A DNA stretch of 46,984 nt, from UHGV virus genome UHGV-0142121; one strand, given 5' to 3'. Below are positions 6,301 to 28,413 of the stretch, piece by piece (within the stretch, counting starts at the first letter, position 1; every line of letters starts with the position of its first letter). Position numbers and translations under genes: made by a program. The notes under the pieces are model-generated. The model was not told the origin of the DNA and made no database searches. It was given only the letters and a program-made list of their open reading frames with translations. Origin of the DNA: a virus.

Positions 6301-7376
6301 ATCACGTCGATGCCGACTCTTAACCCGGTATTGCCCTTTCCATTACGGGCCGACTTCTGGTCGTTATCCAGTGCGCACCAGATTTCCATGCCTGGGTACA
6401 GGCTGACCAGCTGATCAACAACCTTGATAACGTTATTTGCTGACACAGCCACGACAACAGCGTCGAAGCGCTTTTTGGCAACGGCAAACACACTGGCGCC
6501 AGTCGCGAAGCCTTCAACAACGCAGATCCTGGTTGCGCCGCGCAGCTGGCCAATGATGTGGCACGAACCAGCAAAGTCACCGGAATCAACAGCGCGGGTC
6601 TGCAGCTTGTCGTTTCTCTCGGTGATTCGCTGCCAGCCAACAATCGGGCCAACGCGAGATTCCCTGTCTTCCCGGCGGTCATCAATATGAGACAGCGGGA
6701 TAGCCATAACAGTTTGTTTTTTAACCGTTTTAGAATTGGGACCATGGTCCCACTGGGTTACGCGCCTGACGTTGCAGTATGAGAAAATGGAGCTGATACC
6801 TTTCTTCACCGCGTATGGCCATGAACCATCTTCTGCCGGTGCGTTGGCGAATGCGGTGGAGAACTGCAGGTATTCGTTCAGGTCAGCGTCGCGGCGCTGC
6901 GACTCCATAAACACAGAGATAGCCTGCTGGCGTTCACGTTCCTGGCGGCGTGCCTCAGCACGTTTACGCTGTTCCAGCTCGCGCGCGGACAGTGGGACCA
7001 CGGTCCCACCGTTCTGTTCTTTGTACCGGCGATATTCGGCTATAAGGAACTGGAAACCACTCCAGGAGCCAGCGTCAGAGCCTTTACATACGAAGTTAAC
7101 AAACGGGTACTTGATGCCTTCCTGCGAACACTCCATGCGGGAGTAGATCTCAACCTTACCTTTCAGCTTTGGCTCAGTAACGGCAGGACCATGATGGGCG
7201 TACTTTGTGAATTTTTCGGCGGCACCGCGAGAGGCAGAAAGTTGAATATCACTGGCGCATTTATGCCAGTCGATGCCGGCAGCGCTCGCAAGATCACTCA
7301 ATTCATTTGATGCCGCGTCAAGCAGCGAAAACGGGTCAGAGTTAAATTTGTGTTGAAAAAAATCCGTTAATTTCAT
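3387..7376 (-). CDS. repA: Replication protein RepA (primase-helicase), about 1329 aa from ATG at 7376; track ORF extends to a TTG at 7388
   Basis: Size and architecture match N15 RepA; Walker A GMGSGKSK; GGTGA ribosome-binding site before the 7376 ATG. Confidence 0.88.
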   Translation of the reverse strand: MKLTDFFQHKFNSDPFSLLDAASNELSDLASAAGIDWHKCASDIQLSASRGAAEKFTKYAHHGPAVTEPKLKGKVEIYSRMECSQEGIKYPFVNFVCKGSDAGSWSGFQFLIAEYRRYKEQNGGTVVPLSARELEQRKRAEARRQERERQQAISVFMESQRRDADLNEYLQFSTAFANAPAEDGSWPYAVKKGISSIFSYCNVRRVTQWDHGPNSKTVKKQTVMAIPLSHIDDRREDRESRVGPIVGWQRITERNDKLQTRAVDSGDFAGSCHIIGQLRGATRICVVEGFATGASVFAVAKKRFDAVVVAVSANNVIKVVDQLVSLYPGMEIWCALDNDQKSARNGKGNTGLRVGIDVMKKFPQVRCTFPIFDSSETELSDFNDLHLARGATETNRQLFSKQNRLQLPGNSFDAEMLSLAVAPVSDRRAFSRQLVRCIDAGMMQCPSKLSPQELISLIKMKLDQLGADKALHGTVYNRVKRAFKQKCDKAQAFRSFSERVTNPAIRPDHITYKRFDTPHMTKDVLDYIKALNGPVIVRAGMGSGKSKHLLRPMMHSAQRGVSVAHRVSLIGGLWDMMTRADDGRRMNCDILHYQDPGYQELAPYASKLTICINSIVKGCWQPLMRKHDFFGLDEATQGLRATLSGKAMAHPVDVFNRLIDSIAYSDDHALLVDADASDILVDLCELALARREQTGLSTWTQIHVIELPVDVKYKKVDGTREARRVLYTDTDRIMVEVLKAVAAGEKFLLATDSTNFAEQLLLQLRDRWPEKKWLYVSQDTKPDQEVVAFTDAPNQRAKLYDGLIYSPAISSGVSIEERHFTRHFGCFCGQVVPSDAIQMLRRDRTATEFMVGLNKLPGVREENADNIRRGFLQALLETAEINEEFTDAILDGDRLSLGLADTTYVRMKFKVAAMEAQARNDFANNLICILYADGYNVSHLAEDSLASETGKELRKASKERVWDMTVLRHMEVETPDEDERDELMGKRSLSEDEQAQLARWDIEKELMLDVSPESLKFLLDGGKKKLTLAELMTMDEMTAARIDREQQAFTFTYQFRKGPRNEFVTITALNREAADAQFDRMQPGITGYTVQSRPVMEVTQRTYASLHRKAAREYFSTCGINPDTGAGEASQEGMAEAMAKLMDPTTADRFNNVLRFGGYINPKGRQKRPETVFKQICEAFGYATQKRRLPRSQGLGYVWSIVPESWEFIHGILARRAEASLSFVQMKLDVGAPEEPDLDCRSNIDVRSQSGSAETAFIEATLTTIEEAIAAMPVPFAWLRTALTPEELAQLATMPPRLIQATVAGLFMADNMWQLSDGQYNELKRLQAV
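6736..6753. repeat. sopC-like palindrome TTGGGACCATGGTCCCAC inside repA coding sequence
   Basis: Near-perfect 18-bp inverted repeat matching the dispersed family; encodes TQWDHGPN in RepA. Confidence 0.7.
7002..7019. repeat. sopC-like palindrome GTGGGACCACGGTCCCAC inside repA coding sequence
   Basis: Core TGGGACCACGGTCCCA, identical to the F sopC inverted repeat as I recall it; encodes GGTVVPL in RepA. Confidence 0.7.
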
Positions 7377-7405
7377 TATTTCACCCAAAAAAAGACGCTG
7401 CGCAG

Positions 7406-7435
7406 TTGCGCAGTGCAGGTGAAACGAACTACAAT
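7406..7435 (+). promoter_or_regulatory. Candidate sigma70 promoter (TTGCGC, 18-nt spacer, TACAAT) pointing away from repA
   Basis: Hexamers read by eye; overlaps TGCGCAG direct repeats at 7399-7413. Confidence 0.3.
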
Positions 7436-7441
7436 CGACTC

Positions 7442-7558
7442 ACAGTTGTGTCTTTGATCAGCTTTGTTCATTAAAGTGAATGCCAATCACTGACTGAGTT
7501 GAATCTAGACCTGTTTCACCCGAAAAGCCCTGGACGCCACATCCGGGGCTTTTTATTT
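7442..7558 (+). ncRNA. Candidate small RNA of about 115 nt ending in an intrinsic terminator (7526-7558); no ORF
   Basis: Promoter-like element upstream; 8-bp stem AGCCCTGG/CCGGGGCT with 9-nt loop followed by TTTTATTT; lies in the repA-cB intergenic region with no plus-strand CDS. Confidence 0.3.
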
Positions 7559-7644
7559 GTCTGAATCCAGAGGTGGTTAAAAAGTGCTCAATCCGCACGC
7601 TACCTCTGGGGCAAGTACATCCTGGTCAGTTGCTATCACGCCAC

Positions 7645-7674
7645 ATAATAGCCTCTGACAAGTACGTTTGACAA
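7645..7674 (-). promoter_or_regulatory. Candidate leftward promoter (TTGTCA, 18 nt, TATTAT) that would give repA a leader of about 260 nt
   Basis: Hexamers read by eye on the minus strand just downstream of the cB stop. Confidence 0.3.
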
Positions 7675-7694
7675 ACCTTGGTTACTAAAATTTA

Positions 7695-8324
7695 CTATCT
7701 GGCCTTAACTGCTATAGATTTAGCCACGCAGATAACGGGATGAATCAAAATAATTTCGTCAAGATCGATTATCACGCGCTGAGATCTGTCGTTCGGCGCG
7801 TCGAGAAACACTTTGCCATCACGCTTCGACGCTAACATCCTAATAAACGGGTCATTACCTGATTTTGTGACAACGACCACATCTTCCCCGGTCACCGGCT
7901 CGCGGTTTGGGTCTGCGATCAGCACTTCACCGATATGATACGGCGCCGCGACGTCGTTATCGACCATCAGGCCATACAGGGCCGCATCCTGAACATTGAT
8001 ATCAACGTATTCCCGGCAGTTCTGCGCCAGGCCGCTATTAATCATTTCCAGGTTGGGGCCTGTCGCGGTTGAACCGATAACAGGGACTCCACGAAACACA
8101 TCGCCGCCGGCACCAGTTAAGATCCACTCAACAGGACGGCCCAGCTCGCGCGCCAGCTTGATAGCCAGATCTAACGCGGGCATAGCATCACTATTTTCCA
8201 GGTGTGAAAGTCCTGCCCCGGTAATACCGACGCGTTCAGCTACGGCTCTCACCGAGAACTTTGATTTATTTCGCTTCTTCAGCTCTTCACGGCGAGCCTT
8301 CAGCCAATCACCACGTTTTTCCAT
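7695..8324 (-). CDS. cB: Prophage repressor CB (CI-like), 209 aa: N-terminal HTH plus C-terminal LexA/S24-type domain
   Basis: HTH-like segment VRAVAERVGITGAGLSHLE; divergent from a cro-like gene; position matches the N15 immB region. Confidence 0.8.
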   Translation of the reverse strand: MEKRGDWLKARREELKKRNKSKFSVRAVAERVGITGAGLSHLENSDAMPALDLAIKLARELGRPVEWILTGAGGDVFRGVPVIGSTATGPNLEMINSGLAQNCREYVDINVQDAALYGLMVDNDVAAPYHIGEVLIADPNREPVTGEDVVVVTKSGNDPFIRMLASKRDGKVFLDAPNDRSQRVIIDLDEIILIHPVICVAKSIAVKAR

Positions 8325-8345
8325 AGAGAGATATTAAATCAAATC

Positions 8346-8363
8346 TGTATAGCTAGCTATACA
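8346..8363. promoter_or_regulatory. Operator: perfect 18-bp palindrome TGTATAGCTAGCTATACA; a half-site copy TGTATAGCT recurs at 8415
   Basis: Perfect inverted repeat 22 bp upstream of the cB start, inside the cB/cro divergent intergenic region. Confidence 0.6.
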
Positions 8364-8390
8364 CGGCTAAAGGGAATATTAGTGTAAATT

Positions 8391-8435
8391 TTGACAAGCG
8401 TACTAGACAAAACTTGTATAGCTTGGTTAGTATCA
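8391..8435 (+). promoter_or_regulatory. Putative rightward early promoter(s) for cro (TTGACA at 8391; -10-like TAGTAT at 8428)
   Basis: Consensus -35 hexamer; -10 candidates overlap the operator half-site; no Shine-Dalgarno before cro, suggesting a short or absent leader. Confidence 0.4.
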
Positions 8436-8439
8436 TTTC

Positions 8440-8628
8440 ATGAAAACGAAAGAAGCCATAGCCGCCTGCGGCGGCATAAACAAACTCTGCGAACTGCTCG
8501 GCTGTACTCGCGTTGCGATCTACAAATGGGGAGAGGAAGTCCCCGTGCTTCGACAGTACGAGCTGGAGATTAAAACAAATGGCCGACTCAAATCTGACTA
8601 CACACTGCATAAAGAAAAGGATGCCTAA
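8440..8628 (+). CDS. cro: Cro-like repressor, 62 aa
   Basis: Small HTH protein (ELLGCTRVAIYKWG) divergent from cB. Confidence 0.75.
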   Translation: MKTKEAIAACGGINKLCELLGCTRVAIYKWGEEVPVLRQYELEIKTNGRLKSDYTLHKEKDA

Positions 8629-8631
8629 CCC

Positions 8632-9273
8632 ATGGGACAGAATAAACGTCCATCGCGAGACACAATGTCATCAGTGGTTATACGGGCAACCTTACGGATG
8701 CTCGATGAAACCGGCGGCAGTGTCGCACAATTCTCTACAACGCGCTTGATTCCTGCTCTGGAAGTTCAGGGGCTTGTTGATATGGGGTCTGAAGGCATCA
8801 ATGTCACAGATTACATGCGCTGGCGTAGCCGTTGCATTAAGCGAGCACAGCGCGTCCTGGCTGGCGATACACCGATGCCTGCAGATTGGGTGTTAACGTG
8901 GTTGTCATGTCTTCCGGAAGAGTACCGTAACAAGTGCTCTCAGAAGCTGGCAGCGATGCAGGGCCTGCAATGGGTCCGCATGCCTAAGTACAACCGTATT
9001 CGTGTTGATTCAGTCGACGCTGAAATTGACGAGATTACTGTGAAATTCGGTGCCGTTCTCGCCAACTCAGCGCCAGCCCAGGATGGCGTATACGATGGCA
9101 GTGATGACCAGCACGCCCTGAAGCAGCTGCAGAACCGCCTGTATGAGTTGTCGTCATACCTCTATCGGGAAATCCTGAATATAGAAATGGCCACCGGCAT
9201 TAAACCGGACCACGTTGAACTTGGTGCGCTGAGTCCGCTGGGCCATCAAGCAGGGGGCAAATATGCAGTTTAA
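8632..9273 (+). CDS. Hypothetical early protein, 213 aa (possible regulator)
   Basis: First gene after cro in the same operon; no confident motif. Confidence 0.45.
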   Translation: MGQNKRPSRDTMSSVVIRATLRMLDETGGSVAQFSTTRLIPALEVQGLVDMGSEGINVTDYMRWRSRCIKRAQRVLAGDTPMPADWVLTWLSCLPEEYRNKCSQKLAAMQGLQWVRMPKYNRIRVDSVDAEIDEITVKFGAVLANSAPAQDGVYDGSDDQHALKQLQNRLYELSSYLYREILNIEMATGIKPDHVELGALSPLGHQAGGKYAV

Positions 9274-9928
9274 TTTTGTTCGCAACGAGCTTACTGCAGC
9301 GCTCTTGTCGTTCTCAAAATCTCACCGCAATCAGATCGTCGCGATGGCAGAACGTGCGCCACTGCAGAGCCGATTTACTGCAAAGCCGCAGCGTGAAATT
9401 GATATCGATAACGACACTGTCATTGTCATTGATGCCGAGCCAATCAGCTACAGAGAAGGCAAGCGTTACCATACGAGCATGATCCCGGTATCGCCAGCCA
9501 TTTTTAGCCAGGTGTCATGGCGTAGCGCGTTATTGAAAATGCCTGAGCCGTATAAATCCTGGTTGAATTACTGCTACGGCGATTCAATTTCATTTGAATA
9601 TCAAACAATACTGACAACACATATCTGGCATTCCCTGCTGATTAACCTGGCTGAAAGCAAATCGCCAAAAATGAACGGCAAGACTGAAAGCAACTTAAAA
9701 GCACTTGCCTGGTTGGCTCTACAGGAATCAAAAAATTTCATTAACCGCGGCGAGCTTAAATACAGCCAGGAAGAATTGAGCCAGCTATGTGGTGTGAAAT
9801 ATGACCTATGGCGGAAGAATTATAAAAATCGCTGGGATGTCATGTTGGCCTGCAGTGTTCAAATGGATCGGGAGGCGTTAATACATGTCGACCAATTACG
9901 GAAGAAGCATATCAGCAACAGGCGGTGA
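9263..9928 (+). CDS. Hypothetical early protein, 221 aa (antiterminator Q-like role possible by position only)
   Basis: AGGGGG ribosome-binding site; no confident motif. Confidence 0.45.
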   Translation: MQFNFVRNELTAALLSFSKSHRNQIVAMAERAPLQSRFTAKPQREIDIDNDTVIVIDAEPISYREGKRYHTSMIPVSPAIFSQVSWRSALLKMPEPYKSWLNYCYGDSISFEYQTILTTHIWHSLLINLAESKSPKMNGKTESNLKALAWLALQESKNFINRGELKYSQEELSQLCGVKYDLWRKNYKNRWDVMLACSVQMDREALIHVDQLRKKHISNRR

Positions 9929-10187
9929 AATTCCTTCCTGCCTTTGCAAACAAGTAATGCATCACCACGCAGTAAAACCGAAATTAGTTAGATCTGAGCT
10001 ACGCAATGAATATTTGATGTTTTGTCCATCTTGCGGATTCAGAACACATCCTGACTGGTGTCGAAATGCCGTTATTGCGGAGTGGTGTGGCGCAAATAAA
10101 CCAGGTGACCAGCATATTCAGGAGCTTTGGTTAAAGCGCTATACAGAGCAACAAAATGAAAGTCTTGCAAAAAAGATGAATATTTAA
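9885..10187 (+). CDS. Zinc-ribbon protein, 100 aa, weak Lar-like signature
   Basis: CPSCG zinc knuckle followed by AVIAEW, reminiscent of the Lar restriction-alleviation family; GGAGG ribosome-binding site. Confidence 0.35.
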   Translation: MSTNYGRSISATGGEIPSCLCKQVMHHHAVKPKLVRSELRNEYLMFCPSCGFRTHPDWCRNAVIAEWCGANKPGDQHIQELWLKRYTEQQNESLAKKMNI

Positions 10188-10191
10188 CTCA

Positions 10192-10209
10192 TTGGGACCA
10201 TGGTCCCAA
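10192..10209. repeat. sopC-like palindrome TTGGGACCATGGTCCCAA (perfect)
   Basis: Perfect 18-bp palindrome in the 12-nt gap between two early genes. Confidence 0.75.
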
Positions 10210-10226
10210 AATCGGATGAGGTAATT

Positions 10227-10445
10227 ATGGCAGATAACCTTTTCGGGAAGAATCGCACTTATCACGATTCTGGTGATTTCACTCATCGCTATTTCTACTT
10301 ATTGCGCGGTTGCGTTCCCCCGCCAGCGAAACGGCAGGCAGAACCCAGCGTGCAGCCAGTAGCAAAGGCAAATACAAAGAGCCAACGTCAGCAAGCCATG
10401 GATAAGGCCAGGGCCAATGCTAATCGTCGTTATAAAGGAAAATAA
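10227..10445 (+). CDS. Hypothetical protein, 72 aa (start moved to ATG 10227; the track start lies inside the palindrome)
   Basis: GAGG ribosome-binding site 7 nt before ATG 10227. Confidence 0.4.
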   Translation: MADNLFGKNRTYHDSGDFTHRYFYLLRGCVPPPAKRQAEPSVQPVAKANTKSQRQQAMDKARANANRRYKGK

Positions 10446-10446
10446 G

Positions 10447-11385
10447 ATGAAAAACTTCCGTTGCGTATTCCCTTACATCAGCAAAACAGCAGTACCCGAA
10501 AACATCAACGAACTACTCATCGAACGTGCGTTTGATGGCCTGTCTGATTGTGAACGTGAGGGTAAAGGCTGGGCCAGAATTGGCGATGAACGCATGCTTA
10601 CTGTTGATGGTAAGTATCTTTTCCGTTATTTCGCCAGCAAGCGCCGTCCTGACCAGCTGGCGGTTCAGCGTTTGCTTAACGAACGTACCGATGAAGTAGT
10701 CGAAGACGGTCGGGAGGTTACTCCGGAACTGATGGAAGAGATGCGCTTCCAGGCTGAGAACGATGTGATGAAGTACTCCCCAATCAGCAGCACAGCGATC
10801 TATATCCTTATGTGGCCAGCGCGCCGCCTTCTGTTGGTTTCTGGCGGAACGGCGTCAAAGTGCGAGGATGCATTGTCATTTTTGCGTAACACGCTGGGTA
10901 ACCTGCATGCGATGCCATGGGGGAATTCACATTTTACCTCCACAGCAGTCACTAAGAATATGACTGAGGGAAATAGCATCTATAAGCTGCCACCTATGCT
11001 GGCTATTTCGCCTTATGGGAAAACGTTATTCACTGGTGAAGACACATCTTTAAAAATCACGCTTGATGGCGTATCGAATGATACTGACGATGCACGGAAT
11101 ATTCTTTCAGGAATGACGGCCCGTTCAGTTGAGATGTCCCTTTATAAACGCCCTGATAATGGGCAAATTGAAAACTTAGCGAATTTCAACCTTGTCATGC
11201 CGCCGAATGGCAACGTCCATTTAAAATCGTTCGATTACGACGATGATATGGAACGTGATGACTTATCGCAGGCATTGATTGCTGAAATGCACCTCGTGAC
11301 TAACTACACACATCAAATTCTATCCGGGCTGGAAGATTTTATCGGCGTGGATCTGGAAGATAATAGCCTCACGCCGCAGGAATAA
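10447..11385 (+). CDS. rdgC: RdgC-like recombination-associated protein, 313 aa
   Basis: Matches my recollection of E. coli RdgC at several blocks (GTASKCEDALSFLRNTLGNL vs [20 protein letters not shown]); start moved to ATG 10447 after AAAGGA. Confidence 0.65.
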   Translation: MKNFRCVFPYISKTAVPENINELLIERAFDGLSDCEREGKGWARIGDERMLTVDGKYLFRYFASKRRPDQLAVQRLLNERTDEVVEDGREVTPELMEEMRFQAENDVMKYSPISSTAIYILMWPARRLLLVSGGTASKCEDALSFLRNTLGNLHAMPWGNSHFTSTAVTKNMTEGNSIYKLPPMLAISPYGKTLFTGEDTSLKITLDGVSNDTDDARNILSGMTARSVEMSLYKRPDNGQIENLANFNLVMPPNGNVHLKSFDYDDDMERDDLSQALIAEMHLVTNYTHQILSGLEDFIGVDLEDNSLTPQE

Positions 11386-11387
11386 AT

Positions 11388-11588
11388 ATGGCATTGGATC
11401 TGTTTATGCAGGGGCCAATGACAGAACAGGAAGCTACGGAGCTGGCAAATAAGTACAAAGCATCAGGACGCCGGGTATCAATAACGGCGTCGTTTCAGCC
11501 AGGTCTTAAATATGTTCAGGTTTATCTGCCAGTCAGCAGATTTCGCCCCAGACAATCAGCGACATATCAACAAAGAATATGGAAATAA
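11388..11588 (+). CDS. Hypothetical protein, 66 aa
   Basis: AGGAA ribosome-binding site; tightly packed in operon. Confidence 0.4.
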   Translation: MALDLFMQGPMTEQEATELANKYKASGRRVSITASFQPGLKYVQVYLPVSRFRPRQSATYQQRIWK

Positions 11589-12514
11589 TGATGGATAATG
11601 CACATAAGACTATTTTACAGCTGTTAATGGCTACATGGCTTAAAAGTGATTTTCGTATTATTGATACGGAAACAACCGGGCTGGAAGATAATGATGAGAT
11701 TATCGAAATCTCGATCATCAATATGCGTGGTGATGTGCTGCTTGATACGCTTGTTAAGCCGACCCGCCCTATCCCCGCAGCTGCGACCGCTATCAACAAC
11801 ATCACCAACGAAATGGTTGCTGATGCCCCATCCTGGCAGGAAGTTTATCCGGCGGTAGTCGCCGCGATTGGTGGCCATAAGTGGCTTGCCTGGAACTCAA
11901 AATTTGATGCCCGGTTGATTACTCAGACCTGCATGATTACTGGCCTTTATAACGATTTGGCACCGGCGGCCATGCTGGAAATGTACAGCAGCATCCATTC
12001 CGGCCATATCGACGCGAAAGAGACTTACAGCCAGTGGTACGGCGCGCTTTCTATGAAGGATAGAAACTTTGTTCGGCAGTCTCTGTCGATGGCAGTAGTT
12101 CAGCAGGGCGTAACGGTCAGTGCTGAAGCTCACCGTTCACTCGCCGACTGCCAGCGCGTTCTCCGCGTACTAGAAAGCGTCTGCAATGATCCACACCTAC
12201 CAGCTGATGGCGCCGACCTTCGCCAAGGTGATGAGTCCGGGCTGGCGCCCTGCCCGTTCTGCTATGGTCCTCCATCGATGTTTGTTCATCACCTGCATGG
12301 CCTCCAGTACAAGCCGTTGTGGAACCCTGCCAACTATGGCGAGGACGGCCTGTATGCCGGCGCCGTTGTTTTCTGTCATGAGTGCGGCGCACATGGCGAA
12401 GAGGCCACCGATGTTGTGTTTGATGATAGCGACGTCGAGCAACTGGAGAACGCCGCCAAAAAGAACTGGAACACGCGCGATAAGCGCCATCAGGACCTTT
12501 ATGAATCCAAATAA
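11579..12514 (+). CDS. DEDDh (DnaQ-like) 3'-5' exonuclease fused to a C-terminal Lar-type zinc ribbon, 311 aa
   Basis: Exo motifs IIDTETTG, LAWNSKFDARL, HRSLADCQ; C-terminus CPFCYG...CHECGAHG...AAKKNWNTR matches the Lar family pattern. Confidence 0.7.
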   Translation: MEIMMDNAHKTILQLLMATWLKSDFRIIDTETTGLEDNDEIIEISIINMRGDVLLDTLVKPTRPIPAAATAINNITNEMVADAPSWQEVYPAVVAAIGGHKWLAWNSKFDARLITQTCMITGLYNDLAPAAMLEMYSSIHSGHIDAKETYSQWYGALSMKDRNFVRQSLSMAVVQQGVTVSAEAHRSLADCQRVLRVLESVCNDPHLPADGADLRQGDESGLAPCPFCYGPPSMFVHHLHGLQYKPLWNPANYGEDGLYAGAVVFCHECGAHGEEATDVVFDDSDVEQLENAAKKNWNTRDKRHQDLYESK

Positions 12515-12527
12515 GCGGGATTAAGTC

Positions 12528-12758
12528 ATGAAGCTGAAAATGAATGCGCCGGATGGTTCCGTGATTGTCGAAAGCAACCTGGTATCTCAGTTCTATCCTG
12601 ATTTCGACAGCGGTGGCGAGCTAACAACAATCGAAACTGTTTCGCCTGATGGGAAAACTTTCTCAGTGAAAGTTAAGCACTCGTTTCATCAGGTCACTAA
12701 CGCGCTGGCGACCGCATGGCGCGTAGATGAGAAGAAAGCCGAAGGAGCAGCCCAATGA
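12528..12758 (+). CDS. Hypothetical protein, 76 aa
   Basis: ORF in operon with ATGA overlap to the next gene. Confidence 0.4.
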   Translation: MKLKMNAPDGSVIVESNLVSQFYPDFDSGGELTTIETVSPDGKTFSVKVKHSFHQVTNALATAWRVDEKKAEGAAQ

Positions 12759-13336
12759 ACGATATCACTGCACTGGCGCAGCGTATGAAGGCGGCAGCAG
12801 AGAAGGCGACACCGGGGAACTATGTTGTAGGCCATAACGACATTAACCGGCATGGGTTGTTGAGCAGTGTATTTGTATGCCAGGAGTACAAGGGGATTGC
12901 TGGCGGTGTTGTAGCTGAATGCCATATGAATTGTCTTACTAAAAATGACGAGCAGGTGTACGCAAATGCAGAATTTTTTGCAGTTACTCACCCAGCCAAC
13001 GTCCTGGCGCTGGTAGAGGCGCTGGAGATGGCGCAGCGTCAAATACAAGCTCATGAGCGTGCTGAATTCACCTGGATGAATGCCCTAGCGCTTCCGGATA
13101 ATGCGTCGCGTATCGACATCCTACCGGCTATTCATGCGGAAAAATATGCACTGCGAGAGGCAACCAAGCGGATTGCTTCGCTGGAGTCCCGCACTGTCAC
13201 CGTGAAGCTGCCTGAGCGTTACTCCTGCGAACTGGGCTACCCTGGCCCCGACCCGGATGGCGAGCTGCTCGACCGTAACGATGTAATCGAAATACTCCGC
13301 GCTGCTGGCATCCAGGTTATCGAAGGAGACGCATGA
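12755..13336 (+). CDS. Ead/Ea22-like protein, 193 aa
   Basis: N-terminus ITALAQRMKAAAEKATPGNY resembles the lambdoid ead/Ea22 family start. Confidence 0.4.
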   Translation: MNDITALAQRMKAAAEKATPGNYVVGHNDINRHGLLSSVFVCQEYKGIAGGVVAECHMNCLTKNDEQVYANAEFFAVTHPANVLALVEALEMAQRQIQAHERAEFTWMNALALPDNASRIDILPAIHAEKYALREATKRIASLESRTVTVKLPERYSCELGYPGPDPDGELLDRNDVIEILRAAGIQVIEGDA

Positions 13337-13754: not shown

Positions 13755-13758
13755 CTCA

Positions 13759-16168: not shown

Positions 16169-16186
16169 TTGGGACCATGGTCCCAA
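16169..16186. repeat. sopC-like palindrome TTGGGACCATGGTCCCAA (perfect)
   Basis: Perfect 18-bp palindrome just upstream of the putative late promoter. Confidence 0.75.
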
Positions 16187-16194
16187 CCTGGAGC

Positions 16195-16283
16195 TTGCAA
16201 AAACTTCACAAAAAAATTAAACTTTTTCTAAGTTGGGTTTTCTGTAACCAGCTTATTCTAACCGCCTTCATGGCGGTTTTTTT
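16195..16283 (+). promoter_or_regulatory. Putative late promoter (TTGCAA ... TAAACT) plus short leader ending in an intrinsic terminator (16261-16283)
   Basis: Promoter-like hexamers followed about 40 nt later by hairpin ACCGCC-TTCAT-GGCGGT and seven T, upstream of the methyltransferase-lysis operon; architecture resembles Q-dependent late promoters. Confidence 0.35.
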
Positions 16284-16419
16284 GTGCCTTGAAAATGGGC
16301 GCTGCAGCATGTGTGACCATGCCACAGCTTTCAGCCCATGCCGCGGGACAGGGTGAAACAAGGCCCATTGCTGATGCGCAACAGCAAAACGAGCCTATCA
16401 AAAAAGGCTGATAAACACC

Positions 16420-19644: not shown

Positions 19645-19662
19645 TTGGGACCATGGTCCCAA
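19645..19662. repeat. sopC-like palindrome TTGGGACCATGGTCCCAA (perfect)
   Basis: Starts at the base after the upstream stop codon; followed by an intrinsic terminator. Confidence 0.75.
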
Positions 19663-19669
19663 TGAAATG

Positions 19670-19692: not shown

Positions 19693-19804
19693 ATGCGCAT
19701 CGCACGCGCACATCAAAGAGAGTCTTTCAGTAGTGAGCCTGGGTAATCCGTTAACTCTTGGCGGCTTTGCCGTGCGACAGGCTCACGTCTAAAAGGAAAT
19801 AGCT

Positions 19805-19978: not shown

Positions 19979-19990
19979 AAGGAGTAAATA

Positions 19991-21388: not shown

Positions 21389-21392
21389 TGAG

Positions 21393-21779
21393 GTGATCAT
21401 GCTGGATTTAAATCCTCCAACAACTCCTGAAGAAAGTGCGGAGCATGGGCGCTTATACGCTGCATATATTGAATCCCTTGCCAGGACAAAACATCTGGCT
21501 TGCCAGAGGCTGTCGCTCAACGATAAAGAATATCCAGAATGGTTTGTTCTTTGGTTAGACGATGAAATTGCGCGTATTCGTTTTAAGTTAGAGGCGTTGA
21601 AATCCTGGAATAGACGAACTAATCCCGAAACTGCTGCAAATAAGGTTAGAAATATGATTTGGCAGGTTGATTACATGATGCGCGTAGCGACAGGGAAAGT
21701 GTTGCCTTGTCCTGTTAACCCTGAGTCAAATACTAACTGGCTTAACTATATGTCTACTACCAATGCACAGCCTGAATGA
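21393..21779 (+). CDS. Hypothetical protein, 128 aa, AT-richer than flanks
   Basis: ORF between HNH and cos; no motif. Confidence 0.45.
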   Translation: MIMLDLNPPTTPEESAEHGRLYAAYIESLARTKHLACQRLSLNDKEYPEWFVLWLDDEIARIRFKLEALKSWNRRTNPETAANKVRNMIWQVDYMMRVATGKVLPCPVNPESNTNWLNYMSTTNAQPE

Positions 21780-21799
21780 CGACTTTACTCTCGACTGAA

Positions 21800-21990
21800 C
21801 CGGCACCACGATGGCGGCGGGGGGATTGATTTCATTATGAAATCATTCAATGTGAAATCACTTTCAATATCAATAATGAGAATCAATATCATTAGAAGGG
21901 GATAGGGGGGGGTAAAATCCCTAAACCCCCCCGCCGTTGAGGACTGCCGCTTCCAGTCGATTTTTACACGTGGGAAATAAGATCTTTTTT
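21800..21990. other. Putative cos packaging site region
   Basis: Non-coding stretch just upstream of terminase small subunit with GGCGGCGGGGGG (21813-21825), a G8...C7 symmetric element (21903-21932) and repeated (A/G)TGAAATCA motifs. Confidence 0.4.
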
Positions 21991-22042
21991 TTGGATGAAA
22001 TTACCGTAACAGAAAACGCAATTGATGCATGGAGGTGCGCAG

Positions 22043-22480
22043 ATGGCGATGGGTGTGCGATCTCCAGGCGGTGGCCGGAAACCGAATAATATCGGCACAC
22101 AAGTCAGTTCAGTAACACGCGCCGTTTCGCCGCCAGATGAATTGCTGGGTGATATGGCCATTGATGCCTGGAAACGAACCTGCCGGCTGATGATCGATCG
22201 TGGCAACTTCGAAATGGAAGACTGCTACTTGCTGATGGAGTACTGCAACACGGTGCAGCTGCTGTACGACGCTAATCAGGAAATCAAAGGAGACGGGATC
22301 GGTGATGCGACTGCTGCCGGCGGCCAGAAGCTGGGCGCCGCGGTGAAAGCGCGTGATAAGTACATTTCGCAGCTCATCAGGCTGAGCGTCGTTCTGAAAC
22401 TGGACCCGAACAGCCGGGTCAGAGTTGCTAATCCGGGGCAAGGTGGCAAAGAAGCGGGAAACGATTTCGACGATTTTTAA
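22043..22480 (+). CDS. Terminase small subunit, about 145 aa
   Basis: Position directly upstream of terminase large subunit; GGAGG before ATG 22043. Confidence 0.55.
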   Translation: MAMGVRSPGGGRKPNNIGTQVSSVTRAVSPPDELLGDMAIDAWKRTCRLMIDRGNFEMEDCYLLMEYCNTVQLLYDANQEIKGDGIGDATAAGGQKLGAAVKARDKYISQLIRLSVVLKLDPNSRVRVANPGQGGKEAGNDFDDF

Positions 22481-22498
22481 TTGGGACCACGGTCCCAT
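22481..22498. repeat. sopC-like palindrome TTGGGACCACGGTCCCAT at the terS/terL junction
   Basis: 16-mer TGGGACCACGGTCCCA starts at the base after the terS stop and precedes the terL ATG. Confidence 0.7.
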
Positions 22499-22507
22499 TT
22501 TTTATGG

Positions 22508-24229
22508 ATGAGTTATATGGCCGCATACCCGAACGTCAATCTGGCGAATCAGTATGCGCGTGATGTGCTCAGCGGCAGCATAGTCGCCTGTAAATACATC
22601 CGGCTGGCCTGCCAGCGCCATTTTGACGACCTGAAAAAATCACTGGATAAGGATTATCCGTACCGATTTGACCGGGATTTAGCTGAACGAGCATGTCGAT
22701 TTGTTCAGCTGCTACCCCACTCCAGTGGGGACCTCAAAGGGCAGAAACTGAAGCTGGAAATGTGGCAAGCCTTCGCTTTCTGCTCGATCTTCGGCTGGGT
22801 TACGAAATCCAACAAAAAACGACGCTTTAAGGAAGCCTACATCCGCGTTGCCCGTAAAAACGGTAAATCGTTTATCTCTGCGGGCATTGGTATGTATATG
22901 TTCTGCGCTGATGGCGAAAACAGCGCAGAAGTTTACTGTGGCGCCACGCAGATGAGGCAGGCCAAGAAGGTCTTCACCCCAGCCCAACAAATAGCAAAAA
23001 TGCTGCCGGCGCTGCGCCGGCGGTTTGATGTTTCAGTCTGGACCGAGAAGCTGACGCGTCCGGACGGCTCCATATTTGCGCCGGTGGTCGGCGACCCTGG
23101 TGATGGTGACTCACCCAGCTGCGCCATCATTGACGAATACCACGAGCACAAAACAGACCGTCTTTACCAGGCGATGACGACGGGCATGGGCGCCCGTTCT
23201 CAGCCGTTGACGCTGATTATTACCACTGCCGGTACTGACCTCGAATCACCTTGTTACGACAAGGACAAAGAGGTCAAAGAGGCGCTGGACGAAATCACCC
23301 CGAACGATCGACTGTTTGGCATGATTTACGAGCTGGATCAGGGGGACGACTGGACTGACCCGGCCAACCTGATTAAAGCCAACCCGAACCTCGATGTCTC
23401 GGTGAAATACAGCGATCTGGTCGAGCTGCTGGAAGTGGCAAAGAAAGTCCCGCGTATGACGAACGCGTTTAAGACAAAGCGTCTGAATATGTGGGTTTCC
23501 GGTGCCGCAGCGTTCTTCAATATGGAGCAGTGGAAAGAAGCCGAAGATAAGACGCTGAAGCTGTCGGACTTTACTGATGACGATGCCAATCTGGGGCTGG
23601 ATCTCGCGAAAAAGCTCGATATGAACGCCTGCATACCTTTATTCACGCGGGAAATTGAGGGCAAGAAGCACTACTACTCCGTGGCCCCCAAATTTTGGGT
23701 CCCGGAAGATACAGTTCACAGCACCGATCCTAAGCACCTTAAAGCTGCTGACCGGTACCGGAAATTCGTCACGATGAAGGTACTGGAGGCGACCGATGGC
23801 GCCGAGGCTGATTATCGTGAAATTCACGCCAGCATTCTGGATCTGCGGCAGGAAATCAGGATTAAAGAAGCGGATATCGACCCGGCAGGTGCCACGGCGT
23901 TGCGGCATCTGCTGGAGGATGACGGGGTTGAATGTGTGGAGATCACGCAGAACTTCCAGAACATGTCTCCGGCGATGAACGAACTGGAAGCGGCGCTCGC
24001 CGGCGGGCGATTCCACCACGACGGCAATCCGATTCTCACCTGGTGTATCAGCAACGTTATCGGGAAGTTAATTCCCGGCAGCGATGACGTCGTTCGCCCG
24101 ACAAAAGGCGATAAACAATCAAAAATCGACGGCGCGACAGCGTTGTTTAACGCCCTTACGCGCGCGCTGCAGAACGGCGGAGGCGGGGGCGGCAAATCCA
24201 TTTATGACGAGGAAGACGTGGCATGTTAA
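22508..24229 (+). CDS. Terminase large subunit, about 573 aa
   Basis: Size, position and ATPase/nuclease layout typical of phage TerL; start moved to first in-frame ATG 22508. Confidence 0.8.
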   Translation: MSYMAAYPNVNLANQYARDVLSGSIVACKYIRLACQRHFDDLKKSLDKDYPYRFDRDLAERACRFVQLLPHSSGDLKGQKLKLEMWQAFAFCSIFGWVTKSNKKRRFKEAYIRVARKNGKSFISAGIGMYMFCADGENSAEVYCGATQMRQAKKVFTPAQQIAKMLPALRRRFDVSVWTEKLTRPDGSIFAPVVGDPGDGDSPSCAIIDEYHEHKTDRLYQAMTTGMGARSQPLTLIITTAGTDLESPCYDKDKEVKEALDEITPNDRLFGMIYELDQGDDWTDPANLIKANPNLDVSVKYSDLVELLEVAKKVPRMTNAFKTKRLNMWVSGAAAFFNMEQWKEAEDKTLKLSDFTDDDANLGLDLAKKLDMNACIPLFTREIEGKKHYYSVAPKFWVPEDTVHSTDPKHLKAADRYRKFVTMKVLEATDGAEADYREIHASILDLRQEIRIKEADIDPAGATALRHLLEDDGVECVEITQNFQNMSPAMNELEAALAGGRFHHDGNPILTWCISNVIGKLIPGSDDVVRPTKGDKQSKIDGATALFNALTRALQNGGGGGGKSIYDEEDVAC

Positions 24230-24408
24230 CAGCAGCGATCTCGGTTCTGATTTTTCTGATTGGTCTGGCCGGCGCCGTCATGATCTCTGCCGGCGCATGG
24301 CTATTTTCTCCCGCAGCGGGACTAATCACCGGCGGCGTTCTCTGTGTTTTTTGCTCATGTATGTGGGCTAAATATCTGGGTCAGTCAGCTAACAAGGGGA
24401 GCAACTAA
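24223..24408 (+). CDS. Small membrane protein, 61 aa
   Basis: Two hydrophobic helices; overlaps terL stop and portal start. Confidence 0.35.
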   Translation: MLTAAISVLIFLIGLAGAVMISAGAWLFSPAAGLITGGVLCVFCSCMWAKYLGQSANKGSN

Positions 24409-25670
24409 TGTTTATCCCCCAATTTTTCCGGGGAGCATCAAAACCCGGAGTAAACCGAGGCGACTGGACCGTCCTTGGTGGGTTCGGTGCCAGCAGTAGC
24501 TCATCGGGCATCATTATCACGCCGGAAACGGCCATGGCCATGTCGGCGGTCCGGGCATGTGTGACGCTTCTGGCGGAGTCGGTGGCGCAGCTGCCGTGCG
24601 AACTGTATCGACGGGATGAAAAAGGCGGGCGTATTCGGGCGACCGATCACCCGCTCTATGACCTGATTCACTCCCAGCCCAACAAGAAAGACACCTCATT
24701 TGAGTACTACGAGCAGCAGCAGGGCGCGCTGGGGATTGAAGGTAACTCGTTTGCGCTGATTGAGCGTAACGGGAAAGGTGAGCCGACGGAACTGATTCCT
24801 GTGAACCCGAAAAAGGTCATTGTGATGAAAGGCCCGGACGCGATGCCTTATTACCATCTTCCCGATCTCGGCGAAACATTGCCGATGCGCATGGTGCATC
24901 ACGTTAAATATTTCTCGTTCGACGGTTATGTCGGTACGTCGCCAATCCAGACGAACGCGGATGTTCTCGGCCTCGGTCTGGCCGTCGAGCAGCACGCTGC
25001 CCAGGTGTTTGCACGCGGCACGACTATGAGCGGTGTTATTGAACGTCCGAAAGAGGCGGCGGCAATCAAGAGCCAGGAGGCGATTGATAAGCTGCTGGCC
25101 AAATGGACGGATCGGTATTCGGGCGTCCGTAATGCGTTTTCTGTCGCGCTGCTGCAGGAGGGGATGAGCTATAAGCAACTTTCCCAGGACAACGAGAAAG
25201 CGCAACTGCTGGAATCGCGTAAATGGTCGGTGAACGAAATCTGCCGGCTGTATAAAGTCCCGCCGCACATGATTCAGCTGCTGGAACAGTCCACGAACAA
25301 CAACATCGAGCACCAGGGCCTGCAATACGTGATGTACACGCTGCTGGCCTGGCTGAAGCGACATGAAAGCGCGATGATGCGCGATCTGCTACTGCCCAGC
25401 GAACGCCGGGATCTGTATATCGAGTTCAACGTTTCCTCGCTGCTGCGAGGGGACCAGAAATCGCGCTATGAATCGTACGCGCTGGGGCGCCAGTGGGGCT
25501 GGTTATCGGTTAATGATATCCGCCGCATGGAGAATCTGCCGCCTATTCCTGGTGGTGAAACCTATCTGACACCGCTGAATATGGTGGATAGCGCCAAGGT
25601 TATTCAGGGCGTCAGCAAAGCCTCAGCCTCACAGCTGAAAGAGATTGAAGCCATTCTGGCACGTACCTGA
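24408..25670 (+). CDS. Portal protein, 420 aa
   Basis: Size and position after terminase; GGGGAG ribosome-binding site. Confidence 0.75.
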   Translation: MFIPQFFRGASKPGVNRGDWTVLGGFGASSSSSGIIITPETAMAMSAVRACVTLLAESVAQLPCELYRRDEKGGRIRATDHPLYDLIHSQPNKKDTSFEYYEQQQGALGIEGNSFALIERNGKGEPTELIPVNPKKVIVMKGPDAMPYYHLPDLGETLPMRMVHHVKYFSFDGYVGTSPIQTNADVLGLGLAVEQHAAQVFARGTTMSGVIERPKEAAAIKSQEAIDKLLAKWTDRYSGVRNAFSVALLQEGMSYKQLSQDNEKAQLLESRKWSVNEICRLYKVPPHMIQLLEQSTNNNIEHQGLQYVMYTLLAWLKRHESAMMRDLLLPSERRDLYIEFNVSSLLRGDQKSRYESYALGRQWGWLSVNDIRRMENLPPIPGGETYLTPLNMVDSAKVIQGVSKASASQLKEIEAILART

Positions 25671-25710
25671 AACAAGTCCGCAGCCGCGGGCTTTTCTTTT
25701 GGTGGAAACC

Positions 25711-26622
25711 ATGAAACTAAAAATGATTAACCTGCCGCACCTTGCGGATCAGGTCTTCGGTGTTCCGCACTATGCAACGCGCCAGATTATGGACTCGGTG
25801 AAAGCCGTTCTGGTCCCGCGCCTGCAGGGGAATGGTTCTCCGGATTTGTCTATGGCGTTCGAAGCCGATGATGCCCCAGAGCCTGAGCAAACGCAGGCCG
25901 CAGGCGGCGTCGCAGTGATTCCCGTTCACGGCATCCTGGTGCCGCGACGCGGCCAGATTACGGCGGCCTGTACGGAGCTGACCAGCTACGAGCGAATCCG
26001 CGGCATGATTAGCGCCGCGCTGAGCGATGCGGCTGTCAGTGAAATCGTGCTGGATATTAACTCTGGTGGCGGAGCTGCAGTCGGCTGTAAAGAACTGGCC
26101 GATTACATTTTCCAGTCGCGTGACGTGAAGCCGATCACCGCTATCGTGAATTTCAGTGCCTACTCAGCGGCCTATTTTATCGCGTCGGCATGTAGCAAGG
26201 TTCTCGTCAGCCAGACCAGCGGTGTGGGGTCGATTGGCGTCATCATGGAGCACATGGAGGCGTCAAAGTGGGAAGAGAATATCGGTCTGAAGTTTACGAC
26301 GATTTTCCGCGGCGATAACAAGAACAATGGCTCGCAACATGAACCTCTGAGCGAGCAGGCCATGGCGATGTTTCAGGGCATGATCGACCAGATGTATGAG
26401 GTATTCACCAGTTCGGTTGCTGAATACCGCGGCATGGCGCAACAGGCGGTTATCGATACGCAGGCGGCGCTGTATACAGGTGCTGACGCGGTTGCTGCCG
26501 GGTTAGCTGATGAAGTTTCCGACCCACAATCGGCTATCAACGCGATTGCAGCAAAGTACCGAAAACCCCAGCAATCAATCCTGTTACGGGCCTCAGTCAT
26601 GGACATGCAGACCCAACTTTAA
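25711..26622 (+). CDS. Prohead protease, S49 (SppA-like) family, about 303 aa
   Basis: LDINSGGG and GVGSIGV motifs typical of S49 peptidases (lambda C-like); start moved to ATG 25711. Confidence 0.6.
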   Translation: MKLKMINLPHLADQVFGVPHYATRQIMDSVKAVLVPRLQGNGSPDLSMAFEADDAPEPEQTQAAGGVAVIPVHGILVPRRGQITAACTELTSYERIRGMISAALSDAAVSEIVLDINSGGGAAVGCKELADYIFQSRDVKPITAIVNFSAYSAAYFIASACSKVLVSQTSGVGSIGVIMEHMEASKWEENIGLKFTTIFRGDNKNNGSQHEPLSEQAMAMFQGMIDQMYEVFTSSVAEYRGMAQQAVIDTQAALYTGADAVAAGLADEVSDPQSAINAIAAKYRKPQQSILLRASVMDMQTQL

Positions 26623-26646
26623 CCCGACGCCTACGCGTCACCCTGA

Positions 26647-26671
26647 AAGCAGCCATATGGCTGCTTTTTTT
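26647..26671 (+). terminator. Intrinsic terminator between protease and major capsid genes
   Basis: Stem AAGCAGCC/GGCTGCTT with ATAT loop, then TTTTT. Confidence 0.55.
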
Positions 26672-26694
26672 ATGTCTAAAAAGAGAGAAAAATC

Positions 26695-27984
26695 ATGCCT
26701 CAGATTGAAGAATTACGTCGTCAGCGCGCGGGTATTAACGATCAGGTTCAGGCTCTGGCTCAGGTTGAGCTGGGCGGCGGCGTATTGTCCGCCGAGCAAC
26801 TGACTCAGTTTAACAGCCTGCAGCAACAGTTCACCGATATCACCGCTCAAATCACCCGTCTGGAAGCGGCAGAACGCGCCGCAGCAGCGGTAGCGGTTCC
26901 GGTATCCGCAACGGGTACTGGCGCGCCGGCGATTCATGTGAAAGCCGAACCCGCTCAGTACAAGGGCGCGAGCATGACCCGCATGGTTATGGCTATCGCC
27001 GCCGGTGGTGGTAACCTGGGCGATGCGCAGATCTTTGCCGCTAAGGAACTGAACGATAATCAGGTCGCGATGGCGATCAGCACTGCTGCCGGTTCTGGTG
27101 GCGCTCTGGTTCCGACCAATATGCAGAACGAGGTCATCGAGCTGCTGCGCGACCGCACCATCGTTCGTAAGCTGGGCGCGCGTTCCGTGCCACTGCCGAA
27201 CGGCAATATGGCTCTGCCACGCCTGGCCGGTGGTTCGACTGCCAGCTATGTCGGTGAAGGGAAGGACGTGAAAGCCAGCGGCGCCAGCTTTGATGATGTG
27301 AAACTCAGCGCGAAAACGATGATCTGTATGGTTCCGCTGTCGAACCAGTTGATCGGTCGCGCCGGGTTCTCTGTTGAGCAGCTGATTCTGGGCGATATCA
27401 TCAGCGGTATTGCTACCCGCGAAGATAAAGCCTTCCTGCGTGATGATGGCACCGCTGACACGCCGAAGGGCATGAAAGCAGTTGCGACCGCTGCGACACG
27501 CTTCAAAACGTGGGATAAGGATGCTGACCCAACGCTGCAGAACATCGACACCTATCTGGATGGGCTGATCCTGATGACCATGGACGGCAACAGCAACATG
27601 CTGCAGTGCGGCTGGGGTATGTCTAACCGCACCTACATGAAGCTGTTTGGTCTGCGTGATGGCAACGGGAACAAGGTTTACCCGGAAATGGCCGCCGGTA
27701 TGCTGAAGGGCTATCCTATTGAGCGTACCAGCGCGATCCCGGCGAACCTCGGTACCGGCGGTAACGAGTCAGAGATTTACTTCGCTGACTTCAGCGATGT
27801 GCTGATCGGTGAAGAGGGAGACATGAAGGTCGATTTCTCGCGTGAAGCAACTTACATCGATGCGGATGGCAACACCGTTTCTGCGTTCGCCCGTAACCAG
27901 TCCCTGATCCGCGTTATCGTTGAGCACGATATTGGTTTCCGTCACGTCGAAGGTCTGGCGCTCGGTACCGGCGTTCTCTGGTAA
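26695..27984 (+). CDS. Major capsid protein with N-terminal coiled-coil (scaffold-like) domain, 429 aa
   Basis: Position after protease, size, and an N-terminal 90-aa Ala/Gln-rich helical region. Confidence 0.75.
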   Translation: MPQIEELRRQRAGINDQVQALAQVELGGGVLSAEQLTQFNSLQQQFTDITAQITRLEAAERAAAAVAVPVSATGTGAPAIHVKAEPAQYKGASMTRMVMAIAAGGGNLGDAQIFAAKELNDNQVAMAISTAAGSGGALVPTNMQNEVIELLRDRTIVRKLGARSVPLPNGNMALPRLAGGSTASYVGEGKDVKASGASFDDVKLSAKTMICMVPLSNQLIGRAGFSVEQLILGDIISGIATREDKAFLRDDGTADTPKGMKAVATAATRFKTWDKDADPTLQNIDTYLDGLILMTMDGNSNMLQCGWGMSNRTYMKLFGLRDGNGNKVYPEMAAGMLKGYPIERTSAIPANLGTGGNESEIYFADFSDVLIGEEGDMKVDFSREATYIDADGNTVSAFARNQSLIRVIVEHDIGFRHVEGLALGTGVLW

Positions 27985-28014
27985 TCGTTCGCGATAGTGA
28001 TTCGTTCGATGCTG

Positions 28015-28041
28015 AAAAGGCCCGTTTAGCGGGCCTTTTTT
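28015..28041 (+). terminator. Intrinsic terminator after the major capsid gene
   Basis: Hairpin AAAAGGCCCG...CGGGCCTTTT with T-run. Confidence 0.6.
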
Positions 28042-28065
28042 ATTCACTTTAGCTGGAGATAGAGC

Positions 28066-28413
28066 ATGGCTGGAAAACCTAAAACCAAAACAGACGCGGA
28101 CACCACAACTTCCGTTGATGGTGTTGATGCGATTATTGATACCTCCAATATTGTCGACAGTGTGATTTCTGGTGATGTGATTACCGGTGATGAAATTGGG
28201 ACCGTGGTCCCAGCGGTGAAATCCGCGCCGGAACGTCGCGCTGTTGTGTTCCTGGGGCCGTACCATCGTTATTCGCGCGCTGATGTCGCTGCGTTCGATG
28301 CCGAATACGCTGAAGAGCTTGTTGCACGCAATATCGCTGCCTGGCCAGAAGATGCGAAGCGGGCGTTGAATCCTCGTCGGGGAGACGATGACCATGAAAC
28401 CGACATTGGATGA
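28066..28413 (+). CDS. Hypothetical head-region protein, 115 aa; contains a sopC-like palindrome
   Basis: GGAGA ribosome-binding site; palindrome 28196-28213 encodes DEIGTVVPAV. Confidence 0.4.
   Translation: MAGKPKTKTDADTTTSVDGVDAIIDTSNIVDSVISGDVITGDEIGTVVPAVKSAPERRAVVFLGPYHRYSRADVAAFDAEYAEELVARNIAAWPEDAKRALNPRRGDDDHETDIG
28196..28213. repeat. sopC-like palindrome TTGGGACCGTGGTCCCAG inside a CDS
   Basis: 16-mer TGGGACCGTGGTCCCA with 2-bp centre. Confidence 0.65.

Follow-up and report, generated by a model that had tools for sequence, protein, structure and literature searches.

We analyzed the virus genome UHGV-0142121, a stretch of 46,984 nt (hereafter the window), which is a complete linear plasmid-prophage of the N15/PY54 type ("telomere phage") with hairpin telomeres at both of its ends. 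Scattered over it are copies of a short palindrome, some of them lying inside genes, i.e., in the replication gene repA, in a conserved open reading frame (ORF) of the head region, in the tail gene J and in the partition gene sopB. It is very probable that these palindromes are the boxes of a dispersed centromere, with predicted binding of the partition protein SopB, and that the copies inside genes constrain the encoded proteins through the DNA. In its full form the window 16-mer, T-GGGACC-RY-GGTCCC-A (R, purine; Y, pyrimidine), is identical to the SopB site in sopC of plasmid F, i.e., TGGGACC-RY-GGTCCCA, TGGGACCACGGTCCCA (PMC3597684, PMC3177203).

F-type boxes and their partition protein

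The core pattern GGGACCNNGGTCCC (GGGACC-NN-GGTCCC) was found in eight perfect copies, starting at 2126, 6738, 6994, 10194, 16171, 19647, 22483 and 28198, and in three copies with one mismatch, starting at 34721, 38697 and 44556, against a chance expectation of about 1.25 matches at up to two mismatches. When the pattern was informed by function, i.e., GNGACCRYGGTCNC (GNGACC-RY-GGTCNC), there were ten matches versus 0.01 expected. The center was purine-pyrimidine in 11/11 boxes, and the outer T/A pair was present in seven of the eight perfect ones, the box at 2126 deviating solely at position 1. Three perfect boxes (two in repA, one in the head ORF) and two variants changed at position 3 (in J and sopB) are in genes. 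The other five perfect boxes lie in the non-coding part of the genome, which makes up only about 10% of it (binomial P = 4e-4 for 5/8), so that the boxes avoid coding sequence, although it is not barred to them. An earlier note on this DNA had listed the three perfect in-gene palindromes as the strong copies; their places and the peptides assigned to them were confirmed, but the five further perfect, intergenic copies, at 2126, 10194, 16171, 19647 and 22483, were missing from its list.

Binding of F SopB depends on arm positions 2, 4, 5, 6 and 7, of which position 7 is critical, and requires a purine-pyrimidine center, whereas positions 1 and 3 barely matter (PMC3177203). The window SopB is a ParB-type centromere-binding protein of 393 amino acids (43439..44620, minus strand), with a SoPB_HTH domain detected in the ORF 43439-44704 (Pfam, E = 7.7e-26), and it matches the F SopB structure 3MKY with E = 5e-36. 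The residues that make base contacts in the SopB-sopC complex, i.e., S189, R190, K191, I192, R195 and R219 (PMC2910045), were all retained in the alignment. The recognition helix reads AENISRKIIVRC followed by ELSARAG in the window, and AENISRKIITRC followed by ELSARSG in F, with the helix core ISRKII in both. By contrast, N15 and phiKO2 have the helix DRNI, where the window has SRKI, and boxes of the form GCGACC-NN-GGTCGC, which are one position per arm away from the F box GGGACC..GGTCCC. The N15 box (GTGCGACC-NN-GGTCGCAC) was not found in the window even when one mismatch was allowed. In all of the loci collected, the ISRKII helix pairs with G/G boxes, and the DRNI helix (N15, phiKO2) with C/C boxes.

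The first of the perfect intergenic boxes (2125..2140) stands 12 nt 3' of the stop codon of telN and has 9-bp arms followed by TTTT; it may double as a terminator. Syntenic boxes were found after tel in the Yersinia phages PY54 (AJ564013) and vB_YenS_P840 (OQ716682; hereafter P840). The box at 10193..10208 lies 3' of Q-like and Lar-like genes, at the position of the N15 site IR2, and that at 16170..16185, at the position of N15 IR3, precedes by about 90 nt the terminator in front of a methylase gene; IR3 is itself upstream of the late promoter, with a terminator, ahead of the methylase. The box at 19646..19661, 2 nt after a DUF4406 gene, corresponds in position to N15 IR4 and to the fourth site annotated in phiKO2. 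The fifth (22482..22497) is flanked by the stop codon of terS (22480) and the true start of terL, which is the ATG at 22517 (MAAYPNVN), and this box is therefore intergenic. At the terS/terL junction of phiKO2 (L001, ~495-512) we observed the sequence TTGTGACTGCGGCTAA, where PY54, P840 and the window each have a perfect box; this may be what is left of a degenerated box. One more box in the window (GGGACCATAGTCCC, 34720..34735), between tail genes, is imperfect. The segment 34718-34737 (TTGGGACCATAGTCCCAA) is an 18-bp palindrome save for one substitution, G to A, at position 7, which is critical, and this box is probably weak or decayed.

As the earlier note had claimed, the palindromes give rise to spurious ORFs: the TTG of aTTGGGACC serves as the start of those at 6736-7146 and 22481-24229, and for that at 10200-10445 the start is the ATG in the middle of a box. 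Our own greedy ORF map wrongly chose the box-initiated ORFs 10200-10445 and 16177-16356, together with an antisense ORF at 28181-28624, and was corrected by homology.

Tandem Repeats Finder detected no tandem array near sopAB (42000-46984), the arrangement that is found in F, which makes the centromere N15-like, i.e., composed of single dispersed boxes; in the window the distances between them range from 0.26 to 10 kb. With all 11 included, the boxes are spaced more evenly than expected from random placement (P ~0.003-0.005), the largest gap being 6.5 kb. We rejected even spacing as a property of the set, because the result was not robust, being non-significant with 8 or 10 boxes and also in PY54.

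Like the window, N15 and phiKO2 are linear plasmid-prophages with telN, repA, sopAB and scattered single inverted repeats of 16-18 bp, and they have no tandem array. IR1-IR4 of N15 are established centromere sites, whose sequences have been given (PMC7205306), and the phiKO2 record (AY374448) annotates four "putative plasmid partitioning sites". By synteny, the window boxes at 6993, 10193, 16170 and 19646 correspond to the sites at 33481, 35932, 41126 and 45563 in N15 and at 37905, 40345, 45384 and 48618 in phiKO2. The first of these, N15 IR1 and the phiKO2 repA site, falls on the same codons as the window box at 6993; of the remaining sites, one follows Q, one precedes the late promoter and the methylase, and one follows the last early-right gene. 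Whereas N15 and phiKO2 have four boxes, there are 8 to 11 in the window; the additional boxes follow telN, occupy a second site in repA and the terS/terL junction, and lie within the head ORF, J and sopB. The term "centromere-like" used in the earlier note is thus well chosen, given the identity with the F sopC site, the retention of the SopB contact residues, and the synteny with N15 IR2-IR4 and the phiKO2 sites.

PY54 and P840 carry the same F-type box as the window, each with eight perfect copies and three with one mismatch. Nine of the 11 box positions are syntenic with those of the window, including both repA boxes (also 256 bp apart), the head ORF and the sopB 5' region. The second repA site (site B, see below) differs from that of the window, being a position-3 variant that reads WDRGHN; these phages also have a different tail module with no J box, and extra boxes near antA and the methylase gene. 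In the accessible literature we found no description of the PY54 or P840 boxes. F-consensus sites "dispersed over the genome" have been noted on three bacteriophage genomes, which were not named (Pillet et al. 2011, PMC3177203). Plasmid F itself shares with the window the 16-bp consensus, the purine-pyrimidine center, the base-contacting helix residues and R219. However, its sites form 12 tandem 43-bp repeats in non-coding DNA directly 3' of sopB, whereas the window boxes are single, kilobases apart and partly in ORFs.

Coding constraint in repA and the head-region ORF

The gene repA (3387..7376, minus strand) encodes a replication protein of the primase/helicase type and contains two boxes, 256 bp apart. 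Site A (6993..7008, TGGGACCACGGTCCCA), the orthologue of N15 IR1, is read on the minus strand as GGTVVPL. For a codon alignment we used RepA from 12 F-type genomes, i.e., the window, PY54, P840, an Enterobacteriaceae LSJC7 contig and eight IMG/VR contigs, with amino acid identities to the window of 70-85%; a homologue search with an N-terminal fragment of RepA returned partial proteins only, and these were left unused. Site A reads GGG ACC (GTG or ACG) GTC CCA in 12/12 genomes, the central dinucleotide alone varying (to give V or T), whereas the codons flanking it vary freely. Over the whole of repA, the codon was invariant in only 11 of the 372 columns (3%) in which an amino acid of four- or six-fold degeneracy was invariant, and the G, T, V and P codons of site A account for four of those 11. 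With 14/16 positions fixed, site A is the most invariant run of 16 nt in the 4-kb gene. GGG and CCA are minority codons, representing 17% of Gly and 20% of Pro codons, respectively, across the nine long window genes sampled.

In five N15-type genomes the codons of site A are GCG ACC GTG GTC (GCA or GCT), giving the peptide ATVVA; the symmetric G-to-C change in the box therefore replaces both G and P by A in RepA. The RepA proteins of the marine phages VP882 and phiHAP-1, which have a partition system of another kind, contain an unrelated, shorter linker at site A and are missing the loop that houses site B. We also observed that the flank of IR1 in the GenBank record of N15 (L003, AF064539; 33475-33500) reads ggctgaGCGACC…, versus GGCTGTGCGACC… in the published oligonucleotide, so that the outer pair of the 18-bp palindrome is imperfect on one side in that record.

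Site B (6737..6752, TGGGACCATGGTCCCA) is read on the minus strand as TQWDHGPN. Among the same 12 genomes it is perfect in five, a position-3 variant (GGTCAC or GGTCGC) in six, and has two mismatches in one. Its GAC and GGT codons are invariant, the GGT being another of the 11 codon-invariant columns of repA.

The conserved head-region ORF (28066..28413, plus strand; 115 amino acids; phrog_10196) lies just 3' of the major head protein gene, and its box (28197..28212, TGGGACCGTGGTCCCA) is read as IGTVVPA. A query with the major capsid protein yielded a single IMG/VR relative, because head modules are mosaic, and our sample consists of 80 related loci from a portal-based search. The N-terminal part of the protein is hypervariable and is followed by a conserved C-terminal domain (FLGPYxRYS...), with the box in the linker upstream of that domain. 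An in-frame box no more than 45 codons upstream of the domain was present in 38 loci, representing 21 distinct contexts. Ten contexts (26 loci) have N15-type boxes that read ATVVA or ATTVA, eight have perfect F-type boxes that read GT(V/T/M/A)VP, and three have a box with a decayed arm. In a further 34 loci there is no box, and the peptides at its position are unrelated. The flanks are unalignable, and the box alone is conserved. The head ORF is an independent replicate of the peptide switch in RepA. The published Klebsiella phage 48ST307 (L115), which is outside the 80 loci, also has an N15-type box at 27549 in a head ORF that is unannotated; it contains six boxes rather than four, two of which (15134, 15181) are 47 bp apart upstream of the methylase.

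The J-like tail tip protein gene (36867..40085, plus strand) contains one variant box, TGTGACCGTGGTCCCA (38696..38711; core at 38697, GTGACCGTGGTCCC), which is changed at position 3 and read as V-T-V-V-P. The codons GTG ACC GTG GTC CCA are common to the window and LSJC7, and the neighboring synonymous sites differ. Another position-3 variant lies in the 5' variable region of sopB (44555..44570, minus strand; core at 44556, GGGACCGCGGTCAC) and is read as V-T-A-V-P. It is present in the window, PY54, P840 and locus L024, the version in the latter three being GCGACC..GGTCCC, with the N15-type base in the left arm. The earlier note had described the J and sopB palindromes as weaker copies; both are present at these places, but only position 3 is changed in them, and they are not necessarily weak, given the tolerance of F SopB for this position in vitro (PMC3177203).

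Hybrid boxes, in which one arm is N15-type at position 3 (GCGACC or GGTCGC) and the other F-type, occur in genomes with an F-type SopB, i.e., in the sopB 5' region of L002 (22252), L004 (22466) and L024, and at repA site B of L012 and L013. L024, where the SopB helix reads ISRKIISRC, has mixed position-3 variants. Such hybrids could be relics or intermediates of a switch in specificity.

Four of the five in-gene boxes of the window, and all of the head-ORF boxes, are read in the frame xxG-ACC-RYG-GTC-CCA, which gives (G/V/A)-T-x-V-P; repA site B alone uses another frame, giving W-D-(H/R)-G-P. This preference fits with selection for tolerable peptides. The earlier note had held that a function at the DNA level is constraining protein sequence. 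This is borne out by the synonymous invariance of site A in the 12 genomes and by the switch between GTxVP and ATVVA in RepA and in the head ORF (38 loci), and the comparison of synonymous sites, in which site A ranks as the most invariant 16-mer and supplies four of the 11 codon-invariant columns, agrees with it.

Alternative readings and a proposed mechanism

SopB-bound boxes might instead be mainly regulatory, acting as silencers or roadblocks at repA and at late-operon junctions and so tuning RepA dosage and late-gene expression. Two boxes are indeed found within the 5' part of repA, 256 bp apart, in an arrangement conserved in PY54 and P840, and others lie 3' of Q (10194), about 90 nt upstream of the pre-methylase terminator, as does N15 IR3, and at terS/terL. 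However, the boxes in the head ORF, J and sopB are far from recognizable promoters, the N15 IR sites are established centromere sites (PMC7205306), and the sequence offers no feature that separates a regulatory box from a partition box. A regulatory role would also be compatible with a centromere role, rather than excluding it. That regulation is the main function of the boxes we consider decidedly unlikely.

Several points count against the reading of the palindromes as SopB boxes that constrain the host proteins. N15-type RepA has W-S-R-G-P in the loop of site B without a box, so the site B peptide may have been pre-adapted. In J of N15 and phiKO2, the codons ATA AGC GTT ATY CCT encode ISVIP, a conservative equivalent that is likewise without a box. 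Because the site B and J peptides are partly conserved where there is no box, these two sites could owe some of their conservation to the protein level. Several close relatives lack the sopB box, so that some copies need not be functional. The tolerance at position 3 is a property of F SopB in vitro, and all 16 bp are needed for optimal binding (PMC3177203). Lastly, the relatives share phylogeny, so the statistics of synonymous invariance do not represent independent trials. The alignment of RepA homologues thus upheld constraint by the DNA at site A, but at site B the peptide is partly kept without the palindrome in the N15-type proteins, which goes part of the way towards the finding that the earlier note had named as refuting its view.

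WSRGP near site B and ISVIP in J would also favor a more general view, i.e., that GTVVP and WDHGP are motifs of the proteins themselves, with the palindromes a by-product of codon choice. This we find hardly credible, because the same 16-mer occurs five times in intergenic DNA, and because the four-fold degenerate positions of the box are invariant whereas this holds for only 3% of such columns in repA. The change from G..P to A..A tracks the SopB helix type exactly in two unrelated proteins, and the central residue is free (V, T, M or A). In addition, head-ORF homologues without a box carry unrelated peptides at its position, and RepA of VP882 and phiHAP-1 does without the segments. From their sequences, the site B and J boxes seem to have arisen on peptides that were already near the box reading.

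It is most improbable that the palindromes are RNA or DNA hairpins (terminators, RNA-processing or recombination sites): although they fold as RNA with -9 to -17 kcal/mol, UUUU follows the 9-bp arms of the box after telN, and N15 IR4 overlaps an annotated terminator stem-loop, their fold z-scores are modest (-1.4 to -2.8), terminator calling was negative at 2126, the 12 bases are invariant with no compensatory changes and with only the SopB-specificity position co-varying, and the in-gene copies, for which we rejected a terminator or RNA-hairpin role, are without T-runs.

We return to the dispersed centromere. Its box set would comprise eight perfect boxes, two position-3 variants and one weak box, scattered over the replicon. 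If SopB of the window behaves like its counterparts in F and N15, a SopB dimer would bind each box through its helix-turn-helix, would load as a clamp dependent on cytidine triphosphate and spread over neighboring DNA, and would, together with SopA, segregate the low-copy prophage. On plasmid F, coverage by ParB extends over about 15 kb of the DNA surrounding the site (PMC12477601). By the same analogy, SopB would actually bind these boxes and each would be active in partition, and any regulatory effect would likewise be predicted; boxes beside late-operon signals may also modulate late-gene expression, an effect that is reported for N15 in a paper cited in PMC11652158.

With about 90% of the genome coding, some boxes fall in ORFs. 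They would persist there only if the protein can tolerate the peptide that they encode, some of them within a variable linker or loop (the N-terminal region of RepA, the head-ORF linker and the N-terminus of SopB), and others where the existing peptide was similar to the box reading from the outset (the RepA loop W-x-x-G-P, and J). Once a box was established, selection would act on the DNA, fixing the 12 specified bases, four-fold degenerate third positions included, while the free central dinucleotide would determine whether the residue in the middle is V, T, M or A. If SopB then changed its specificity, with G becoming C at box position 3, G..P would be rewritten to A..A in the host proteins.

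A tentative extension, which we think rather unlikely, is that the in-gene boxes are positioned, such that repA and the late and structural operons would be coated, and in part silenced, by SopB complexes along the whole linear prophage, with segregation thereby coupled to replication and lytic control. The members of such a positioned set are the two boxes in the 5' part of repA, those at terS/terL and upstream of the late terminator, and those in the head, tail and sopB genes. A box occurs every 3-6 kb if all 11 are counted. A related and equally tentative reading is that a switch between the F and N15 specificities, which would need the concerted rewriting of 4 to 11 dispersed boxes, including residues of RepA and the head protein, proceeded via intermediates of relaxed specificity, with the hybrid GCGACC..GGTCCC boxes as relics.

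The replicon, its relatives and implications

Perfect 54-bp palindromes with a common core, …CACATTATTAAATATACGCGCGTATATTTAATAATGTG…, occupy both ends of the window (1-54 and 46931-46984). They are hairpin telomeres through which the assembly has read by 27 nt, and the window thus spans the entire linear prophage. The ORF at 213-2114 has TelK/ResT domains (Pfam) and is the protelomerase gene telN. Upstream of sopB on the minus strand is sopA (44617..45786), encoding a Walker-type ParA ATPase of 389 amino acids (AAA_31/CbiA by Pfam in the ORF 44617-45828). RepA of the window is 71-72% identical to those of PY54 and P840, and about 51% identical to those of N15 and phiKO2. The nearest deposited phages have a DNA identity of only about 75%, over parts of the genome, and a megablast search of a plasmid collection with repA gave no match.

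An identical SopB was found in 123 blocks of the collection, representing many public assemblies, gut metagenomes among them, and the element seems to be common in gut metagenomes. Several of the scaffolds with an identical SopB are about twice the unit length, e.g., the ENA metagenome scaffolds L111 (93.9 kb) and L112 (93.1 kb), which suggests fold-back or dimer assemblies of a hairpin-ended replicon. Between sopA and the right telomere there is an ORF for a GNAT-type acetyltransferase of 160 amino acids (45966-46448, plus strand), at a position where close relatives have a TacA1 antitoxin and acetyltransferase pair; this ORF beside the partition genes may be a toxin-antitoxin stabilization module.

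Chromosomal parS sites resemble the window boxes in being dispersed 16-bp inverted repeats that bind ParB, several of them inside coding sequences. They differ in belonging to another ParB subfamily, in their box (TGTTNCACGTGAAACA) and in being clustered near the origin. In Bacillus subtilis, whose parS sites were reportedly described by Lin and Grossman in 1998, the first parS lies inside spo0J. Dispersed Sop boxes in telomere phage-plasmids are also already known, since 1999-2001 in the case of N15, where the centromere sites IR1-IR4 are said to have been described by Ravin and Lane in 1999 and by Grigoriev and Lobocka in 2001. The repA box (N15 IR1, and annotated in phiKO2), F-consensus boxes on phage genomes and in-gene chromosomal ParB sites are known as well. 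The window is a further member of a PY54-like subgroup with F-type boxes, and extends a known system. What we add is modest: a quantified coding constraint, a replicated switch between G..P and A..A, a head-ORF box that recurs in both clades, and hybrid position-3 boxes.

For annotation, the boxes should be marked, because false ORF starts are seeded via the TTG of aTTGGGACC and via the central ATG. From the F-type boxes, one would also predict incompatibility through partition, or cross-talk, with plasmids of the F-like and pYV-like kinds that have the same SopB specificity. More generally, a 16-bp box for a partition protein can override codon and amino acid choice inside essential genes of a phage-plasmid. 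It provides a clean natural example of overlapping codes at the DNA and protein levels, and of co-evolution between a trans factor and its many dispersed cis sites.

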